Source: Dictyostelium discoideum (taxonomy: Eukaryota). Taken from it: a stretch of DNA of 64,000 bases. The notes below the pieces were generated by a model. The model ran no database searches, was not told the origin of the DNA, and was given only the letters and a program-made list of their open reading frames with translations. Shown piece by piece: positions 7,997 through 56,100 of the stretch. Position 1 is the stretch's first letter. Every line of letters begins with the position of its first letter. The stretch covers positions 2,976,001 through 3,040,000 of the forward strand of contig CM000153.2 in the NCBI GenBank assembly GCA_000004695.1, read 5' to 3'. Both the position numbers and the translations under genes were made by a program.

Positions 7997-8122
7997 TGGA
8001 TGAGATTCATATTATAATCATTTTTATAAATTAATTTTAATTATGGAAATTATTTAAGTAAAAAAAAAAAAAAAAAAATGTTTCGTTTCGTGAAATTTTA
8101 ACTAAAAAAAAAAAAATAAAAA

Positions 8123-8158
<36 letters not shown>

Positions 8159-8230
8159 TTTTTCATTTTTATTTTTTTTTTTGTGCGTAGGATAGAAAAA
8201 AACGTCAAAATTCCTTTTATTTATAAATAA

Positions 8231-10444
<2,214 letters not shown>

Positions 10445-44870: not shown

Positions 44871-46010
44871 ATGAAATTAGTTAATATTTTTATAATGCTT
44901 GTTATTTTTTTAATAACATTTTCTGTATATAATAAAATTTATCCAAATAATAGTAATACTAGTAGTAGTAGTAGTAGTAGCAGTAGTAAATATGAAGATT
45001 TTCAAATAAATAAAGAAATAAAAAACCAAGATTATTGTAGAATTGAGTCAATGGATTTTTCAAAATTAAATGAAGAATTAATAATAGAGAATAGAGGTAT
45101 TGCTGATATTATTGTTGGTGATAAAGATATAGAAAACATTAATTATATTGGTTTAGATTCATTTAAATGTTCATTAGGATTCAATGGAATTTATTTGACA
45201 CCATCAAATATTTGGAATGTCATAATTTTAGGTTTAAATAAATTGGTTAACCCAATGAAATACTCTTCATTAATTAATGAAAAGGATCAAACTTTAATAT
45301 TACAAAATTCAATTTTTAAAAATAATAATAATAATAATAATGATCAAATTGAAAAGATTTTAATTGAAGAAATATCAAAAAAAATAAATCCAACTTTCAA
45401 ACAACTCTTAATACCAAAATTTGAATCATCAACATTAAAAGATGGATTAATATTTTTAACAAATGCAATTGGAAAGAGGAATGGTGTATATGATTATGGT
45501 ATGATAGATTGTAAGGTTCCTTCATGTTATGTTAATGAAAGTTTGCCAAAGGATATTCAAATTTTGGGTAATATAGAAGATTATGAAAAAATGTTGATTA
45601 ATATTAAATCGATTTATGATCTTTTATATGAAGATTTTAATTTGGATGATACATCATTCAAACTTTTTGAATGGTATGGAAAGAATACATTCATTATAGA
45701 ATCTATTATCAAATATATGCGTGATAAGTCATTTAAAAATATGGATTTATATTATTTTATTAATAAATTCCATTCATCAAATTCACTAAATGGTTTTTTA
45801 AATGATGCAAGAGGTTTTTCATATATTCCAATTGAAATTGTGAATGGAACTGATTTAGTGTATCCAACAGGAACAAAAATAAATTTATTTGCTGGTCATT
45901 TTGCTTCAAATATCTTATTACCAAAATCTATTCATGGTGGTTTAGCAATCGTGGAACCTACAATCAATTGGGTCATTACAAAATATCGAATGTTCAGTTC
46001 AATAATTTAA
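44871..46010 (+). CDS. hypothetical secreted/type-II membrane protein, 379 aa, single exon
   Basis: An N-terminal hydrophobic signal/anchor (MKLVNIFIMLVIFLITFSVY), a polySer tract, then a low-complexity-free globular region with scattered Cys. I recognise no family. Confidence 0.55.
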   Translation: MKLVNIFIMLVIFLITFSVYNKIYPNNSNTSSSSSSSSSKYEDFQINKEIKNQDYCRIESMDFSKLNEELIIENRGIADIIVGDKDIENINYIGLDSFKCSLGFNGIYLTPSNIWNVIILGLNKLVNPMKYSSLINEKDQTLILQNSIFKNNNNNNNDQIEKILIEEISKKINPTFKQLLIPKFESSTLKDGLIFLTNAIGKRNGVYDYGMIDCKVPSCYVNESLPKDIQILGNIEDYEKMLINIKSIYDLLYEDFNLDDTSFKLFEWYGKNTFIIESIIKYMRDKSFKNMDLYYFINKFHSSNSLNGFLNDARGFSYIPIEIVNGTDLVYPTGTKINLFAGHFASNILLPKSIHGGLAIVEPTINWVITKYRMFSSII

Positions 46011-46478: not shown

Positions 46479-48536
46479 ATGATGGAATTAGGATTTGAAA
46501 ATGATATTGATTTATTAAATCAATATCAAACAATTCAATCAAGAAAAACAAAAGATTATAAAAAGTTTTTAGAAATTAAACAAGAGAATAAGAATCAACA
46601 TTTAGATATTATCTCATCATTTTGGGATGTAATTGTTATTACTGCTATTGATTCACTTCAAAAGGAATACTATGAGCAAGTATTAAAAGAAAAGATGAAT
46701 CAAAATCAAATTCCATCATTTATACCTTACGTTGTAATTTCTGATCCAGTTGGTGAAAAAATAGGTTGTGGTGGTTCAACCCTTTATGTTTTAAAAACAT
46801 TATCAACAATATTTGGTGATGATAAAATTAAAAATAGTAAGTAATAATAAATAATAAATAATAAATAATAAATAATAAATAATAATAATAATGCACATAT
46901 TAATATCTTTCAAAATAAAGTGAAAATATTATTATTACATGCTGGTGGGTATAGTAAAAGATTACCAAATCATTCAACAACTGGTAAGATATTTGCATCA
47001 ATACCATGTACACTTGGAATGGGTGGAAATAATAATAATAATAATGATGACGAAGATGAATCAAAATTACAAGCATGTTCAATGTTAGAAATTAAATTAA
47101 TAATATTAATTGATATACCAAAGAGAATGAAACCAGGTGTATTCTTAGCATGTTCAGATGATATTGAATTATTTGAATCAAATGAAATGTCTTTCAATTC
47201 AAGTGAAGATGGTACATTCATTGCATTATCTCAACCTGGTACATTGGATATTGGTGTTGGACATGGTGTTTTCATTCTTGATGATGTTAATCAGTATAAA
47301 CCAAATCAATTAAATTCATGTAGAAAATTCATTCATAAACCATCAAAAGAGAAAATGAAAAATGAAAATGCTATACTTTCAAATGGTTTAGTTTTAATGG
47401 ATAGTTGTTATTATTTCGATCATAAAGTTTTTTCAATTTTATTAAATTATTATAATCAAAATAATCCAATTAATTGTGAAATTGATGCATATTCTGATTT
47501 TTTACAAGTAAGTAATAATAATAATAATAACTAATATTATTTATATTATCGTTAATATTAATATTATTATTTTTATTTATTATTATTATTGATTTAGCCA
47601 TTAGGTAAAAGTGCAGAACCAAATTATTTTCAAGTTAAAAGTAATGTTACAAAATTTTTACCACATTTACCAAAAGAAAGAGAAAAGATATATAACTTTT
47701 TAAATTCAAATAAATGTAAATTAGAAATGATACCAATGTCACCATCTGCATTCATTCATATTGGTACATGTCATGAATATATTGAACATTTTACAATCAA
47801 TTTCCCAAAATTAGGTTTTAAGAATTTAATTTTCTCTGAAATTGGTAGTGGGATTAATAATAATAATAACAATAATAGTGTTATTTTACATTCAATATTA
47901 TTAAATAATTTAAATACAATTATTAATGATAATAGTGTAATTGAATATTGTAATTTTAAAGGAATTAATAAACTTTCAATTGGTAATAGATGTATAGTAT
48001 CAGATTTAGAATTTGAAAATTCTAATGAACAGCAACAACAACAGCAACAACAACAGCAACAACAACAACAACAACAACAAACATTATCGTCATCAAATTA
48101 TTCAATTGAAATACCATCAAATTCATTCATTCAAACACTTTCAATTAGTTGTAATAGATATGTTACAATATTCTTTGGTATTGATGATGATTTAAAATCA
48201 ACTACAAATCCAAAATTATTTGGTATTCCTTTAAAAGATTATAATTTAAATTCAATTAATACTAGTGATGATAATAATAATAATAATTCACTTTGGAATG
48301 CACCATTATTTCCAATTTCAAATATTTCTCCAAAAGATTCACTTTTAAAAACTTTAAATAGTTTACAAAAAACAAAACAAACAAACTTTTTTTCAAATAA
48401 TGAACAACAACCCCAACAACAACAACAATCATATTATTCAATTGAACAATGTTTAAATGAAAAGGATTTATCAAAACAATTTATTAGAAGATCAAATTTA
48501 ACAAATGAAATTTTAAATTTAAAAAATAAAAAATAA
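46479..48536 (+). CDS. fpgt: fucose-1-phosphate guanylyltransferase (GDP-L-fucose pyrophosphorylase, fucokinase-domain family), 3 exons
   Basis: Exon 1 is 46479-46844 (..FWDVIVITAIDSLQKEYYEQVLKEK...VVISDPVGEKIGCGGSTLYVLKTL is approximately the FUK/FPGT N-terminal GDP-sugar pyrophosphorylase fold), with a GTAAGT donor. Exon 2 is ~46918-47510 (KILLLHAGGYSKRLPNHSTTGKIFASIP is approximately human FPGT LHSGGYSQRLPNASALGKIFTALP), donor CAA|GTAAGT. Exon 3 is ~47598-48536 (contains polyQ). Confidence 0.8.
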
Positions 48537-48561
48537 AAAATAAAAAATATTAAATTATTAA

Positions 48562-48566
<5 letters not shown>

Positions 48567-48655
<89 letters not shown>

Positions 48656-48688: not shown

Positions 48689-50832
48689 TTAATTATCACA
48701 AATATAATTTTTAATAATTTCTTGAATTGAACGAGTATCAAGTATTTGTGAAGGTGTTAGAGGTGTAGAGATGAATGAAGAAGAAGTTTGATCAATATCC
48801 ATTGGTGGTGAACGTAAAATTGGTGGTGAAGTTGACCAAGGTAATAGAGGTTGAATTGAGTTGAATAATGATCTTAAACCAAAACCAATACTACCAACTG
48901 AAATATTTCTTTGTTTAATACAATAAATTGAAATGATAATTTCAATGGTAATTAATTTCCAACCTTGTTCAATCAATTGTTTTGTATTCTTTATTGATAG
49001 TGGTGCTTGTGAAGATGTGTCTTCATAACCTTCACATAATTGCATGCCAGATTGTTGAGTTAATACAGGTTGTGATAATTGTTGAATCGTTGATACAATA
49101 GATGAGGCAATTTTACAAAGATTTAAAATTTGATAATGGTAATTCTTTTGTTGTTCAATTGTATGTTGTTTACTACCAACTGAACCACTTGAATTGAAAT
49201 TTTGAAAATTATTAAATTCATTCCAAGGTAATTTTGAAATTCTTTGAGCTTGTGTTTGTATACATCTACAAAGTGATAATCTTAATGTATCCATTGACAA
49301 TGATAATAAACCACTATCGATATTACCATTTGTATAGGGTAATCCATTATCTTCATTACTTTGAATCAATGGATTATCAACACATAAATTCATCTCTTTT
49401 TCAAATATACCATAACACCAATCAAATGATGTATATGCTGCACCATGAATTTGACTAACATTTCTAAAACTCATTGGATCAATTAAATTACATTTTTTAT
49501 CTTTTAATAAATTTGGTGTTTGATTACCACTATTATTACTATCATTTGTTTGATTATTATTATTAATATCATTATTTTGATTATCACTTGATGACCATAA
49601 TTTACTAAAATTTAAAATATTTTGAAAATTATTTGAACATTGAACTTGACCATTTTGATTATGAACTTTACTAACTACAGAATTTAAACTATTTAAATTC
49701 ACTCTGAATGCTTCCATTGCAAATGAGGCAGAAGTATCAAGAGCATTTAAAAAGCATGAAACATCATTTAAAGTTAATGCTCCAGATGCTAATGTTATAC
49801 AATTTCCATTAATTAATGAATTTGTCTCTAAAATTGATAATTGTTCATTTTCTTTTAATGAATTAATTAAATCATCACCATCATCATTATTATTATCACT
49901 ACTACTACTACTACATTGAGTTTGATTATTATCACCATTAAAATCGATATCATTACTACAACCACCACTTAAAAATGGATATGGAATAACTTTTGGTATT
50001 TTACCATTTGGTAATGAAATTGATTTACCAATTAATGGCAATGATGCTTGTGATAATGATATTGAATCGGAATTACCATTTGAACAATTATCAATTACTA
50101 ATGGAAGGTTATCTTCTTTTAATCTTTTTATTAATGAATCCAATGTCAATAATGAAATTCCTGATGTTCCAGATGATAATAAATTCAATTGAATTAATAA
50201 TGATGCTCTTAATACTTTATCTGGTATATAATCATTTGAAACTATTGAAGAATTTTGAATTATTAAATTTTCATTTAAATTAATTTTGAAATTATTATTT
50301 TGGTTATTATCATTTAAATAATTTAAATAACTATAATTATTATTATTATTATTGTTGTTATTGCTATTATTATTATCATTATTATTACTATTATTACTAT
50401 TATTATTTGATGGTTTTGTTTGTGGTAATTGATCTTTGTTTTTAATTTGTTCTTGATTAATTTTAATTTCTTCATTAGAATTTTCTTTGATTTTGTTTGG
50501 CAATAATGGTGATAAAATTGATAAAGAATTTTTCAAATCTTTACCATTGTCATTGTATACAAAGTTTTTAATATCAAATTTGTTTTTATTTTCTTTTAAT
50601 TTAATTGCTAAATTATTTCTGTATTCGTTAACTCGAGCAATTGTTTTATCACCAATAAAAAATCCTACCTTTTTATTAGCAAATAATACAACTTGTTTTA
50701 TACTTTTTTTATTATTTTTTTATTTTTTTTTATTTGTTAATAGATTTTTAATTTTTTTAATTTTTTTTTTTTTTATTTTTTAATTAATAATTACCTTAAA
50801 TTATTTGTTGATATAATTATTTCTGGTTCCAT
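48689..50832 (-). CDS. aromatic-amino-acid ammonia-lyase (HAL/PAL) fold protein lacking the MIO-forming Ala-Ser-Gly triad, 2 exons, ~685 aa
   Basis: Exon 1 is 50832-50795 (MEPEIIISTNNL), donor AG|GTAATT. The intron is 50794-50703 and ends aaaaaaag. Exon 2 is 50702-48689; the phase was verified (AG+t=Ser). Similarity to histidase:
- IPDKVLRASLLIQLNLLSSGTSGISLLTLDSLIKRLKEDNLPLV is approximately HAL [44 protein letters not shown].
- LINGNCITLASGALTLNDV...AMEAFRVN is approximately LINGTQMITSLGCEAV...TLEVLKGT.
- DPMSFRNVSQIHGAAYTSFDWCYGIFEKEMNLCVDNPLI is approximately [39 protein letters not shown].
At the MIO position HAL has GASGDLAPLSHLA; here it is NGNSDSISLSQAS (ASG to GNS). There are long polyN inserts. 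Confidence 0.75.
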
Positions 50833-51527: not shown

Positions 51528-52793
51528 ATGAAAAATGATTTATATACATTCGGAAAGAAAAATTATATACTCAACAATTTATTTAGGAGTTTAGGAGAAA
51601 TAAAGAAAATTAAAGATGATTTACAAATTGTTAGATTAACTATGAATTGCCAGAAAATTAATATTATTGATATTAAATGCACTAATGATACTTTATTTAT
51701 ATTATTTTCAAATGGTGAATTTATTTGTAAAAGAATGATTCCAACATTATCTATAAATGAAATAACATCACCAATAAAAATTTTAAAAATATCATCAGGT
51801 TATAATCATTTTCACCTTTTATCAATTGATAATAAATTATATGGATTAGGTGACAATAGTTTTAATCAAATAGGTTTTAATAATATTAATATTAGTAATA
51901 ATAATTGGTATGAAAGAATAAAACAAGTCGAATATTTTAATGAAATTAATTTAAAGATGGTATCATCTGGTGGTAGACATCATTCAATATTTATTGGTAT
52001 TGATGGTAGTGTATATTCTTGTGGTTCAAATAAATATAATCAATTAGGAAGAAGAACAACTAATGGGGAAAATGAAACAACTCATAATATTGAAAAATTA
52101 GAAACAACTATTCTATTCGATAATTGCTCGTCAGGTGATCATCATAATTTATTAATAGCAACTAACGGATTAGTATATGGTTTCGGTTTAAACTCACATG
52201 GTCAATTAGGTATAATTACAAATTATAATGTAAAATTACCAATTTCAAATAATAAAAATGAAAATGATAATAATAGTAATGAAAATGATAATTATGGTTA
52301 TTCTATTAAACTATTAACATTATTAGAAACATTAAAAGATGAACATATAGTTGAAGTTAGATGTTCAATGTGGCATAGCATATTATTATCAAAGAAGGGT
52401 GAAGTTTTCACATTTGGCGAGGGATCTTCATTTCAATTAGGTCATGGTGATAATATCTCTTATCAAACCCCTATTCTCGTTGATGAATTATCTGAAAATA
52501 ATTTTAAAATTAATTCAATATCTTGTTCAACTAATTCATCTTTATTTTTAGATAATCAACATAGAGTATTTTATTGTGGAGATAATTTCATTTCACAAGA
52601 TTTTGAATGTAATAATCAAGATAACCAAAATTACAGCTATGATGGGGATGATGAGGATGATGATGATAATGATAATGATTGTAGTAATAAAATCGAAAAT
52701 CCAACACCTTTAACTCAACTTATACAAACATTGGATTTTTCTCCTCCAAATAATATCTACACCCATAATTCAAACTTTAACTTTATGTGGTAA
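51528..52793 (+). CDS. RCC1 (regulator of chromosome condensation) repeat protein, 421 aa
   Basis: At least five RCC1 blades: LYGLGDNSFNQIG; VYSCGSNKYNQLGRR; VYGFGLNSHGQLG; VFTFGEGSSFQLGHGDN; VFYCGDN. Acidic DDEDDDDNDND tail. The ORF ends TGG TAA GTG, so a TG|GTAAGT donor to a further exon cannot be excluded. Confidence 0.8.
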   Translation: MKNDLYTFGKKNYILNNLFRSLGEIKKIKDDLQIVRLTMNCQKINIIDIKCTNDTLFILFSNGEFICKRMIPTLSINEITSPIKILKISSGYNHFHLLSIDNKLYGLGDNSFNQIGFNNINISNNNWYERIKQVEYFNEINLKMVSSGGRHHSIFIGIDGSVYSCGSNKYNQLGRRTTNGENETTHNIEKLETTILFDNCSSGDHHNLLIATNGLVYGFGLNSHGQLGIITNYNVKLPISNNKNENDNNSNENDNYGYSIKLLTLLETLKDEHIVEVRCSMWHSILLSKKGEVFTFGEGSSFQLGHGDNISYQTPILVDELSENNFKINSISCSTNSSLFLDNQHRVFYCGDNFISQDFECNNQDNQNYSYDGDDEDDDDNDNDCSNKIENPTPLTQLIQTLDFSPPNNIYTHNSNFNFMW

Positions 52794-53505: not shown

Positions 53506-56100
53506 TTACAAGAAATTGTTGTTGTTATTATTATTATTAATATGAACTTGTTGGTTGTTGTGATGAGAATTAAAAATTTGTTTATATTTTAATTCCAAAT
53601 GTTTAGTAAAATTTAAATTATCACAAAGTGGGGAATTAATCATTAAATTTCTTAGATTACTTCTAAAGAATATTAATTTATCGATATCTCTTGACAAAGC
53701 CAAAGCGATTTCAACATATTGACCATGATTGTAGGCAACCAACTGAGGTAGATTTAGTGTATGTAAAATTGATTTACCCACATTATTACAATGATAAGAA
53801 GGTGTTGATAGTGAAACCGTTGGAACACCCATCCAAAGTGATTCACAAGTTGTTGTAGTACCAGCGTATGGAAAAGTATCTAAACTAATATCCAACATCT
53901 GGCTATAATATTGAAGATGATCTTTTTGATGAGAAAATAAACCAACCAAATCCACCTGATTCAAATTGAATCCAAATTTAATTAATCTCTTGCTAAATGA
54001 TTTCTTTGTATCTTCACAAGCGAATGGTTTACTCTTTAATAATAATCTTGTTCCAATTGGTGATCTATCCAATATTAATTTCCAACAATTTAAACATTTA
54101 TCACTATATTTAGCCATAACATTAAATGATCCAAATGTAATATAACCATTCTTTAAAAATGGTGGTGGTGGTGGTAATGGTGGTGGTGGTGGTAGTGGTG
54201 GTGGTGATGGTGACGGTGGTGATATATTATCATTTGATGATGATGCTGCTGAAATTGGTGGGAAATAAGTTAAAAAACATTGTGGCATTCTAATTAAAGT
54301 TTCAGTGAATTGTTGTTTTGTATCTAATGGATCAACTATTGAATCTGTTATTCTATATTGAATAGTTTTTAAACCTGTTGTATTTGGATAACCAATGTAT
54401 GATATTTGAATTGGTGATGGTTGTAATGCCATAACATCCATTCTATTACCACAGGTATGACCTGACAACTCTACCAATATATCAACTTGATCATCCTTTA
54501 TCAATTGAACTACCTCCATTGTAGGTTTACCAGTTATATGTCTCCATTCATGACCATATGATTTTAATCTTTCAGTTGTAGTATCTTGTTTAGAAATATT
54601 TGAATAACATATAATTTTAAATTCTTCCTTATTATGAAATTTTAAAATTCCTTCAATAAAATAACTAACTGAATGTATAAAAAAATCACCTGAAATATAA
54701 CCAATAATTAATTTATCTTTTTTTTTAATTATTCCATTATTATTATTTATGTTATTATTATTACTATCAATACCATATTTTAAATTTAAAGAATTTAAAA
54801 ATGATTGACCCCATTGTTGGTGAATTTCATAAATTTGTGAATAATTAAATTCTGTTGAATAATTTAATGCCAATAATTTATTATGTTGAGCATTTAAAGA
54901 ATTTGTTGGTGAACATTGAATACATTTTTCATAACTTTTGATCGATTGAGAAATTTTACCAATATCACGATAAACTACACCAAGATTATTATAAGCATCG
55001 GCATATGTTGGTGATTCTTTAATTGCAAGTTTAACATATTTTTTTGCTAATTTCATCTTTCCTTGCATTGTATAAATAATTGCTAAATTACTTAAACTTT
55101 GAGAGAATGATGGATTCGATTTTAATGCTAATTGATAATAGTGTATTGATTGTTCAATATTATCAATATCTTTATATAATACACCTAAATTATTTAAAGC
55201 TTCAACATATTGATTATTATTATTATTACTATTATTTTTATTATTTATTTCATTAAAATGAATTGCTAATTCATAATTCATAATTGATTTTTCAATTTGT
55301 TTTCTTTCACTAAATAATACGCCTAAATTATAATAAGTACCTTCATATTTGAAATTATAATGTAATGATTTTTTATAGAATTCTTTAGCTAAATCAATTT
55401 CACCATTCAATTTAACTTTTGTACCTAAATCGTTATATGCTATCGCTATATTATTCTTTACAAGTGAATAGTTTGGATTGATTTGTAGGGCACGTTTATA
55501 ATATTCTATACTTGTTTCAATTTCACCAAGATTCTTTCTAATTACACCAATATTACATAAAACCTCTGGATAATTTGGATTTAATAATAATGCTTTTGAA
55601 TAACTTTCCAACGCCAATGAATATGAAATACCCTCTTCATAGAATACAACTCCCATATAAAATAATGCTGTTGAATTCTTTACATTTGATCTACTTGCAA
55701 GATAATACATTTTCAATGCATCAATCATTTTTTTCTTTTCTCTAAATTCTGTACCAACTTCAATTAAAAATTCATCAATTTTAATAATTTCATCATTACT
55801 AACCTGACTACTACTACCACTACCACTACTACTATTATTAATTATTTTAATTTCAATTAATTTATTTAAAAAACTAATAATTTCATTATTATAAATACTA
55901 TTATTTAAATCATTATTATTATTATTTAAATTATTATTATTAATATTATTTTCATTTAGTTTAACAATAATAAAACTATTAACTATATTATTTTTTTTAT
56001 TTTCTTTATCATTGGTAATTTCATCCTTTTTAATAATTTCAACATTTACTGAATTTGGATTGTCATGGATTATTATATCATAACAAATTTTAATTTGCAT
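53506..56100 (-). CDS. TPR-repeat glycosyltransferase of the GT41 family (O-GlcNAc transferase / SPINDLY-like), 864 aa, single exon
   Basis: The N-terminal half has more than 8 TPR units (ALxxYxxALxxNPNY, AYNNLGVVYRDIGK...). The C-terminal half matches the GT41 catalytic lobes: GYISGDFFIHSVSYF, ELSGHTCGNRMDVMALQPSPIQISYIGYPNTTG, TFGSFNVMAKYSD, FPYAGTTTTCESLWMGVPTVSL. It has a polyproline insert PPSPSPPPLPPPPPLPPPPPF and polyN tracts. Confidence 0.85.
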   Translation of the reverse strand: MQIKICYDIIIHDNPNSVNVEIIKKDEITNDKENKKNNIVNSFIIVKLNENNINNNNLNNNNNDLNNSIYNNEIISFLNKLIEIKIINNSSSGSGSSSQVSNDEIIKIDEFLIEVGTEFREKKKMIDALKMYYLASRSNVKNSTALFYMGVVFYEEGISYSLALESYSKALLLNPNYPEVLCNIGVIRKNLGEIETSIEYYKRALQINPNYSLVKNNIAIAYNDLGTKVKLNGEIDLAKEFYKKSLHYNFKYEGTYYNLGVLFSERKQIEKSIMNYELAIHFNEINNKNNSNNNNNQYVEALNNLGVLYKDIDNIEQSIHYYQLALKSNPSFSQSLSNLAIIYTMQGKMKLAKKYVKLAIKESPTYADAYNNLGVVYRDIGKISQSIKSYEKCIQCSPTNSLNAQHNKLLALNYSTEFNYSQIYEIHQQWGQSFLNSLNLKYGIDSNNNNINNNNGIIKKKDKLIIGYISGDFFIHSVSYFIEGILKFHNKEEFKIICYSNISKQDTTTERLKSYGHEWRHITGKPTMEVVQLIKDDQVDILVELSGHTCGNRMDVMALQPSPIQISYIGYPNTTGLKTIQYRITDSIVDPLDTKQQFTETLIRMPQCFLTYFPPISAASSSNDNISPPSPSPPPLPPPPPLPPPPPFLKNGYITFGSFNVMAKYSDKCLNCWKLILDRSPIGTRLLLKSKPFACEDTKKSFSKRLIKFGFNLNQVDLVGLFSHQKDHLQYYSQMLDISLDTFPYAGTTTTCESLWMGVPTVSLSTPSYHCNNVGKSILHTLNLPQLVAYNHGQYVEIALALSRDIDKLIFFRSNLRNLMINSPLCDNLNFTKHLELKYKQIFNSHHNNQQVHINNNNNNNNFL

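Follow-up and report, generated by a model that had tools for sequence, protein, structure and literature searches.

INTRODUCTION

The active ammonia-lyases that act on histidine, phenylalanine or tyrosine (HAL or HutH, PAL and TAL) carry an Ala-Ser-Gly triad that autocyclizes to the electrophile 4-methylideneimidazol-5-one (MIO). The HAL fold (PF00221) without this triad is already known from ergothionase, of which a structure was released in 2019 (Treponema denticola, PDB 6s7j), and from histidine-betaine lyases described in preprints of 2025 and 2026. These MIO-less family members are active trimethylammonia-lyases (bioRxiv 10.1101/2025.08.13.670108; 10.64898/2026.04.22.720169). Neither ergothionase nor the histidine-betaine lyases of Shewanella need MIO, as the trimethylamine that they release is a good leaving group; a Tyr on a loop acts as the base, and His/Glu together with Gln/Arg/Asn hold the imidazole and carboxylate groups of the substrate. 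In Dictyostelium discoideum a eukaryote-type HAL ortholog, a PAL-like copy probably obtained from bacteria and a third, "very divergent" homolog that was left unanalyzed have been reported (Emiliani et al. 2009, PMC2657906). Here we describe a lyase-like gene on the minus strand of a 64,000-nucleotide stretch of the D. discoideum genome (contig CM000153.2, positions 2,976,001 to 3,040,000; this whole stretch is called the window, and all coordinates refer to it). The gene is most likely the "very divergent" homolog.

The encoded protein has the PF00221 fold and no MIO-forming triad, as an earlier note made from the DNA sequence alone had claimed. The explanation that accounts best for the observations, and which we hold to be rather probable, is that dictyostelids acquired a MIO-less lyase from bacteria and that catalytic residues were lost afterwards, giving a protein that is functional but changed. 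The earlier proposal that a dictyostelid histidase paralog lost its triad is not upheld.

In comparison with ergothionase, the D. discoideum protein has the same shortened loop (GEGD in ergothionase, GNSD here, GASD in bacterial relatives), the DPLSFR, DNP and ED motifs, membership of the same MIO-less clade, and a Lys in the column of the thiolate-binding Lys384. Unlike ergothionase it belongs to another subclade and lacks the Tyr-loop motif YG..G.G and has neither the His in "SH" nor the Gln in "QDP". It is furthermore a eukaryotic protein that is encoded by an intron-bearing gene and has about 180 residues in disordered inserts. Since the Lys384 column agrees but the Tyr loop and His features do not, no ergothionase assignment was made. 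The hercynine lyases Swoo_3913 of Shewanella woodyi and SO_3299/SO_3057 of Shewanella oneidensis, which were compared by description, are also MIO-deficient PF00221 proteins with histidine-betaine substrates and urocanate-type products, and bacterial relatives of the Dictyostelium gene are linked to urocanate metabolism as well (hutU, hutI, hutF, hutC, betaine-type transport). The Shewanella enzymes differ by being periplasmic and coupled to urocanate reductases, and their residue in the Lys384 column is Asn or Gln, compared to His in the bacterial GASD proteins and Lys in the D. discoideum protein.

HAL itself (Pseudomonas putida 1b8f, Trypanosoma cruzi 6v6h) shares the fold, the tetramer-type architecture, the N-terminal domain and the equivalents of Arg283, Asn195, the DNP motif and Glu414. 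In contrast to HAL, the D. discoideum protein is devoid of Ala-Ser-Gly, of the equivalents of His83 and Gln277 and of the Tyr53 loop, has Ile in place of Phe329, and falls outside the MIO-bearing sequences. Its closest relatives are bacterial proteins with a GxSD loop, here called the GASD subclade, which enclose the dictyostelid sequences in 200 of 200 bootstraps. The D. discoideum protein differs from them in having 68 of their 108 invariant residues, and there is no operon context in the eukaryote.

RESULTS

Gene model, fold and disordered inserts

The gene consists of two exons, both on the minus strand. Exon 1 (50795..50832) has its ATG at 50832 and comprises codons 1-12 plus 2 nt (MEPEIIISTNNL). 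It is followed by an AT-rich spliceosomal intron of 92 nt (50703..50794) with GT..AG borders in phase 2, and by exon 2 (48689..50702), which encodes residues 13-683, carries the PF00221 core and ends with a TAA stop (48689-48691). Translation gave a 683-amino acid product that is 100% identical from end to end to DDB_G0285259 of D. discoideum AX4, annotated as a hypothetical protein; the two-exon model proposed before was thus exact.

The product matched PF00221 with an E-value of 3.3e-48 and 165 bits, compared to a gathering score of 27.3, and has the all-helical fold of the HAL type. In the predicted model, residues 1-61 form a strand-helix-strand-helix unit with a confidence score (pLDDT) of 87-97 over residues 1-50 and 63 over residues 51-60, and this part aligns with the N-termini of homologs. 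An N-terminal extension of about 110 residues, as was suggested earlier, is therefore not present. The extra length is internal and lies in residues 62-148 (50297..50557, minus strand), a disordered Asn/Ser-rich insert of about 87 residues with a pLDDT below 50 that sits at the position of the catalytic Tyr loop. In the relatives this lid loop reads YGITTGVGSQKD, and its P-A-Y-G-I-T-T-G-V-G-S-Q-K-D form bears the catalytic Tyr. Additional disordered Asn/Ser-rich inserts are found at residues ~256-300, 383-418 and 641-668. In total, the disordered inserts comprise about 180 residues.

The MIO site

At the MIO position, the alignment pairs S-V-G-A-S-G-D-L-A-P-L-S of HAL with C-S-N-G-N-S-D-S-I-S-L-S of the D. 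discoideum protein. The former MIO site is G-N-S-D, residues 222-225 (50066..50077, minus strand), and the loop is one residue shorter than GASGD, with Ala changed to Asn, Ser kept and Gly deleted. The earlier note had read Gly-Asn-Ser as the replacement of Ala-Ser-Gly. The absence of the triad is confirmed, but the register is different, the correct correspondence being G-N-S-D to G-A-S-G-D.

An intact triad elsewhere in the sequence would have contradicted the assignment as a MIO-less protein. An Ala-Ser-Gly does occur, formed by residues 318-320 (49781..49789, minus strand; in LINGNCITLASGAL), inside helix 314-345 of the predicted model. The corresponding column reads LAQGA in Polysphondylium violaceum and Tieghemostelium lacteum and LAEGA or LAEAA in bacteria, and it matches the helix that follows Asn195 of HAL. 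Due to its mid-helix location and non-homologous alignment position this is a coincidental match and not a displaced MIO triad.

Mutants of P. putida HAL at Asp145 and Phe329 are included in the Protein Data Bank (1gk3, 1eb4, 1gk2). The equivalent of Phe329 in the D. discoideum protein is Ile474. Work of Baedeker and Schulz reportedly showed that Asp145 and Phe329 are both required for MIO cyclization, and the Ile at this column is consistent with absence of MIO formation. The sequence argues against post-translational formation of MIO in the D. discoideum protein.

Relatives and phylogeny

Orthologs were found in a D. cf. discoideum assembly (91% identity), D. purpureum (partial model), P. 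violaceum, a related environmental sequence and T. lacteum, so that DDB_G0285259 belongs to a small dictyostelid gene family. These dictyostelid proteins also lack Ala-Ser-Gly; the loop is GVSD in D. purpureum and P. violaceum and GASD in T. lacteum. No ortholog from Cavenderia, Heterostelium, Acytostelium or any other eukaryote was found in the searches, which covered predicted proteins and not raw genomes. The window contains no second PF00221 gene according to tblastn. The earlier suggestion that the gene is an extra copy besides a canonical histidase agrees with the eukaryote-type HAL ortholog reported for D. discoideum (PMC2657906).

With the full D. discoideum sequence as the query, searches were swamped by poly-Asn words (6 matches from 8000 candidates) and the T. 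lacteum ortholog was used instead. This retrieved a large bacterial family with 41-45% identity over the full length and annotated as aromatic amino acid lyase or histidine ammonia-lyase; the bacterial GASD relatives are about 30% identical to the D. discoideum protein. In nearly all of the family the loop reads S-V-G-A-S-D-[IL]-V, with the same Gly missing (SVGASD in 116 bacterial relatives). When 1.84 billion representatives were searched exhaustively with a profile, 3455 matches at E ≤0.001 were obtained. In this search the four dictyostelid clusters scored at least 663 bits and the best bacterial match 354 bits, and no further eukaryote-like ortholog cluster lay in between. The readable motifs among matches better than ~1e-44 were all of the short G-x-x-D type (GASD, GQAD, GQSD, GVAD, GESD, GMSD, GAGD and others), and MIO-bearing GASGD/GSSGD sequences occurred only below that level. 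Ergothionase, with S-I-G-E-G-D, has the same shortening. The Labrys relative P0026 matched ergothionase 6s7j over the whole length with an E-value of 9e-43, whereas matches to HALs were at ~1e-30 and covered the first three quarters only.

Trees were constructed by neighbor-joining on corrected p-distances, using 131 sequences and subsequently 66 taxa with 200 bootstraps. All G-x-x-D sequences including ergothionase formed one clade apart from the MIO-bearing sequences (197/200). The dictyostelid sequences were monophyletic (200/200) and located inside the bacterial GASD subclade (200/200), as sister to bacterial P0110, with or without P0126, in 165-176 of the 200 replicates. Among them, the short-branched T. 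lacteum sequence was sister to the long-branched pair of D. discoideum and P. violaceum (200/200). Because of the nesting within a bacterial MIO-less clade, loss of MIO must long predate the dictyostelid genes.

The best score of the D. discoideum protein on the NCBIfam models for hutH, PAL, TAL and aminomutases was 105.8 bits against a cut-off of 524; on hutH it was 93 against 539. Dictyostelid and bacterial GASD proteins together scored 93-254 bits on the two histidine ammonia-lyase models, which have cut-offs of 524-539. By these NCBIfam sequence criteria neither the dictyostelid nor the bacterial GASD proteins are HutH. With scores so far below the cut-offs, the public label histidine ammonia-lyase on the T. 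lacteum and P. violaceum proteins and on many bacterial entries is probably wrong. NCBIfam holds no model specific for ergothionase or betaine lyases, and as a consequence no curated name can be assigned.

Loss and retention of catalytic residues

In the alignment, 108 columns show at least 95% conservation across 116 bacterial GASD members. T. lacteum keeps 101 of these, P. violaceum 70 and D. discoideum 68, compared to a minimum of 100 and a median of 108 in bacteria. With the bacterial consensus as outgroup, there were 88 lineage-specific changes in D. discoideum versus 21 in T. lacteum, which is a significant rate difference in the Tajima relative-rate test (p 1.4e-10).

Several changes are common to D. 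discoideum, D. purpureum and/or P. violaceum. The YGITTGVGSQK loop is destroyed. The imidazole-binding His (His83 in P. putida HAL), which is invariant in the bacterial relatives and present in T. lacteum, is Asn in all three species (Asn163 in D. discoideum, 50252..50254, minus strand). Three other invariant His residues are replaced, by Asn at position 471, by Ser or Ile at 502 and by Lys at 543. Lys543 (49112..49114, minus strand) occupies the ergothionase Lys384 column, which is His in the bacterial GASD proteins and T. lacteum and Lys in both D. discoideum and P. violaceum. Further derived changes are Gly344Ala, Ala607Cys, Arg610Gln and Glu638Ser. The carboxylate-binding Gln (Gln277 of HAL) was lost in D. 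discoideum alone, where Ile420 (49481..49483, minus strand) is found in this column. T. lacteum retains the YGITTGVG motif of the Tyr loop, the imidazole-binding His and the three other invariant His residues. Judged from its sequence, the T. lacteum protein is probably an active lyase with the full bacterial catalytic set.

Retained in the D. discoideum protein are the carboxylate-binding Arg426 (49463..49465; Arg283 of HAL), Asn456 of the DNP motif (49373..49375) and Glu573 of the ED motif (49022..49024; Glu414 of HAL and Glu412 of ergothionase), all encoded on the minus strand, as well as Asn311/Asn313 and Asp574, which follows Glu573. Three Cys residues, Cys219 beside the former MIO loop, Cys442 and Cys493, are found in each of the six dictyostelid sequences, that of T. 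lacteum included, and are lacking in the bacterial consensus.

The ratio of nonsynonymous to synonymous substitution rates (dN/dS) between AX4 and D. cf. discoideum was 0.17 overall and 0.03, 0, 0.11 and 0.025 in four core blocks, with replacements concentrated in the low-complexity inserts. This strong purifying selection on the core indicates a functional protein rather than a decaying one.

Origin of the dictyostelid genes

The single intron interrupts the D. discoideum, D. cf. discoideum, P. violaceum and T. lacteum genes at one and the same codon (after ..N-L), each time in phase 2. In D. discoideum, D. cf. discoideum (L008) and P. violaceum (L091) a fucose pyrophosphorylase gene lies tail to tail with the lyase-like gene; T. 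lacteum (L090) does not share this arrangement. The GC content of the gene is 23%, close to the 21.6% of the window, whereas the bacterial loci of its relatives have 50-64%, and its poly-Asn tracts are typical of D. discoideum. The nesting in the bacterial GASD subclade, the shared intron and the host-like base composition make an old transfer from bacteria likely, and on the sequence evidence the MIO-less state was inherited, most likely through it. The simplest history would be one acquisition from bacteria in an ancestor of the Dictyosteliales, before the split of Raperosteliaceae and Dictyosteliaceae, after which the intron would have been gained and the base composition of the host acquired.

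The bacterial GASD subclade

A scan of one genome per bacterial species detected the GASD subclade in 208 species. They belong mainly to the Alphaproteobacteria (Labrys, Rhizobium, Mesorhizobium, Lichenihabitans, Acetobacteraceae, Acidiphilium, Inquilinus, Nisaea and roseobacters), and a few Acidimicrobiales and Polyangiales also have it. To describe the gene context, the neighbors of 80 GASD loci were clustered and the cluster representatives were named with NCBIfam and Pfam.

In about 20 of the 80 loci the lyase gene is directly downstream of hutU, in the arrangement hutF (opposite strand), hutI, hutC, hutU, lyase (for example L072, L078, L079, L051, L062, L066, L069, L084 and L087, with the lyase at ~8001-9480 in each). 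The hutU product scored 980 bits on TIGR01228, and a canonical MIO-bearing hutH was nearby in 11 loci. These loci often also include a small Inh-like (PF02974) gene, a dimethylglycine dehydrogenase-like gene and a choline/betaine-type ABC permease.

Another 12 loci, of marine Alphaproteobacteria and others, have a GcvA-type LysR regulator gene in the opposite orientation, followed by genes for a HalD-like 2-oxoglutarate/Fe oxygenase (PF23169, E 1e-14) and an M24 hydrolase and then by the lyase gene (L046, L048, L057, L059, L060, L064, L068, L075 and L076 among others). The hydrolase resembles DddP, with 404 bits against a 600-bit cut-off. Eight loci of Rhizobiales show an apparent operon of amidohydrolase, lyase, UbiD, UbiX and M20 peptidase genes with a LysR regulator, which is found in Labrys, Rhizobium and Mesorhizobium (L010-L016, L034, L045; also L001 and L005). 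An acrylic acid-making lyase beside a decarboxylase pair of the prenylated FMN type is an unusual combination. The remaining loci had no conserved context.

According to the alignments, the Tyr loop is kept in the GASD subclade, as are the His and Glu that bind imidazole and the Gln, Arg and Asn that bind the carboxylate. This retained catalytic set, the hut-linked context and the known MIO-deficient chemistry suggest that the ancestral enzyme would form urocanate or a close analog from a histidine derivative that HutH cannot use. We infer that the substrate of the subclade would be a histidine derivative other than histidine, and the hut-linked arrangement suggests that these lyases are an unrecognized feeder route into the Hut pathway. 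The bacterial neighbors closest to the dictyostelids gave no guide to function, since T. lacteum is 41-45% identical to proteins of all context types and the nearest, P0110, is on a 4.7-kb contig with uninformative neighbors.

Some individual loci had other features. P0111 (754 amino acids) is a natural fusion of a MIO-less PF00221 domain and an arginase-family domain (PF00491). P0125, from a metagenome-assembled genome of the Actinomycetota, is similarly long (769 amino acids), with the lyase domain C-terminal (residues 453-749). In Labrys (L001) and Azospirillum (L002), arginase-family genes lie a few kb from the lyase gene. In Lacibacterium aquatile (L004) the lyase gene is flanked by a fatty acid desaturase-like gene and three tandem Methyltransf_21 genes; HutD, a GntR regulator and a peptide ABC transporter precede a second PF00221 gene 10 kb downstream. 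In L006 two methyltransferase genes enclose the lyase gene, which is also beside a class IV aminotransferase gene. The methyltransferase neighbors in L004 and L006 may be related to N-methylated substrates.

Neighboring genes in the window

The fucose pyrophosphorylase gene (46479-48536, plus strand) converges on the 3' end of the lyase-like gene. It has multiple exons, two of which match PF07959 with E-values of 2e-64 and 2e-37, and contains a poly-Gln tract. The spacer between the converging 3' ends is filled by an (AAT)n/(TAA)n microsatellite of roughly at least 30 units (48545-48655). On the 5' side of the lyase-like gene are an RCC1-repeat gene (51528-52793, plus strand; PF25390/PF00415) and a gene encoding a TPR and glycosyltransferase family 41 protein (53506-56100, minus strand; PF13844). 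A 379-residue open reading frame at 44871-46010 (plus strand) has a hydrophobic N-terminal segment and a DUF4419 domain (E 3e-9).

DISCUSSION

The ancestor of the dictyostelid genes would have been a member of the bacterial MIO-independent branch of PF00221, with a G-x-x-D loop and no electrophilic cofactor. In the lineage of D. discoideum, D. purpureum and P. violaceum, the gene would then have evolved fast, with the Tyr loop turned into a disordered insert and the fold, Arg426, Asn456, Asn313 and Glu573 kept. From the residues lost, we consider it most likely that the D. discoideum protein no longer performs the ancestral β-elimination and was repurposed, either as a ligand-binding pseudo-enzyme or for a different reaction. 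The fully specified form of this proposal can be put forward only tentatively. It describes a captured bacterial lyase that is an enzyme in T. lacteum and non-catalytic or differently catalytic in Dictyostelium and Polysphondylium, where the lid loop became an Asn-rich linker and four His residues were replaced by Asn, Asn, Lys and Ser/Ile. A pseudo-enzyme would still bind a carboxylate ligand, and the D. discoideum protein may sense or bind metabolites of prey microbes that resemble urocanate, hercynine or ergothioneine.

The earlier note had deduced a pseudo-enzyme from the absence of MIO. That step fails, since MIO-less family members are active trimethylammonia-lyases (bioRxiv 10.1101/2025.08.13.670108; 10.64898/2026.04.22.720169). 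The idea of repurposing gains support from another side, namely loss of the Tyr loop, the imidazole-binding His and three further His residues that T. lacteum all keeps, but it does not follow from the missing MIO alone.

Five observations weigh against a transferred lyase that lost its catalytic function. The ancestral substrate was deduced from gene neighborhood, which is heterogeneous, with ca. 20 of 80 loci hut-linked and the others having M24/HalD-like genes, UbiD/UbiX or no conserved neighbors. The trees were made by neighbor-joining and the dictyostelid branches are long, so that the nesting with P0110 (83-88%) could be partly due to long-branch attraction. One MAFFT run paired Tyr62 (FVYNDNG; FLYNEN in D. 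purpureum) with the catalytic Tyr and another did not; P. violaceum has Thr there. As the sole possible remnant of the Tyr loop, conserved in D. purpureum, Tyr62 may provide a residual base. Dictyostelium and Polysphondylium share the derived residues (Asn for His twice, Lys for His, Ala for Gly, Cys for Ala, Gln for Arg and Ser for Glu), which means that a new catalytic activity fits as well as a non-catalytic role. Finally, a full-text literature search for DDB_G0285259 gave no mention of it and no expression evidence.

The alternative that survives best is that the protein is a still active MIO-independent lyase with a re-tooled site, in which, for example, Tyr62 on the long flexible insert would be the base and Lys543 would bind a thiolate or another anionic group, and which would degrade ergothioneine or another betaine from fungal or bacterial prey. 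The protein is inside a clade of active trimethylammonia-lyases, is under strong purifying selection and keeps Arg426, Asn456, Asn313 and Glu573. The strongest hint is that D. discoideum and P. violaceum have both changed His to Lys at the ergothionase Lys384 column, and Tyr62 is alignable in one run and conserved in D. purpureum. However, the YGxxTGxG motif that is invariant in bacteria is unrecognizable here and P. violaceum has Thr instead of Tyr. Moreover, all three Dictyosteliaceae have Asn for the imidazole-binding His, D. discoideum has Ile for the Gln and 40 of the 108 subclade-invariant positions are changed. We regard this alternative as unlikely, although it deserves consideration.

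It is very improbable that the gene arose in dictyostelids by duplication of the eukaryotic histidase, with in situ loss of Ala-Ser-Gly to give a pseudo-enzyme. A canonical HAL ortholog is available for duplication in D. discoideum and the triad is indeed absent, but the closest relatives are bacterial G-x-x-D proteins (41-45% identity) while MIO-bearing HALs score far lower, the trees place the protein in the bacterial MIO-less clade (197-200 of 200) and the same one-residue deletion occurs in hundreds of bacterial sequences. A decaying pseudogene, an annotation artifact or bacterial contamination of the assembly is hardly credible, for although the long low-complexity inserts, the lost catalytic residues and the lack of literature or expression evidence in the literature search would fit, the 683-codon reading frame is intact, four species share the position and phase of the canonical intron, the core blocks have a dN/dS of 0-0.11, there is conserved synteny with host genes, and the 23% GC and poly-Asn tracts are typical of D. 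discoideum.

Acquisition of a bacterial MIO-less lyase followed by loss of catalytic residues thus remains our preferred explanation. To the extent of the literature and databases searched, the dictyostelid proteins are the first eukaryotic members of the MIO-less clade, with a shared intron, synteny and ameliorated base composition as the signature of transfer. Within the same scope, the following also appear to be new: their bacterial origin, for which the common intron speaks; the later disappearance of catalytic residues in Dictyosteliaceae, while T. lacteum has an intact ortholog in the ancestral state; and the size and hut-linkage of the GASD subclade.

For the family, the existence of a large MIO-independent clade means that lack of Ala-Ser-Gly alone is no proof that a HAL-fold protein is a dead enzyme. 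The GASD subclade occurs in at least 208 species and is labeled histidine ammonia-lyase, yet its members cannot form MIO. From its linkage to hutU and to transporters of the betaine type, one would predict that Alphaproteobacteria of soil, lichens and the sea channel a histidine derivative, possibly hercynine-like, into the Hut pathway. For the dictyostelids, T. lacteum with the full catalytic set and D. discoideum with the set lost offer a natural before/after pair for the repurposing of an enzyme scaffold in a genetically tractable organism. If the proposed history is true, it would be a datable event of enzyme-to-pseudo-enzyme conversion or neofunctionalization, of which the "before" state is still alive in a sister lineage.

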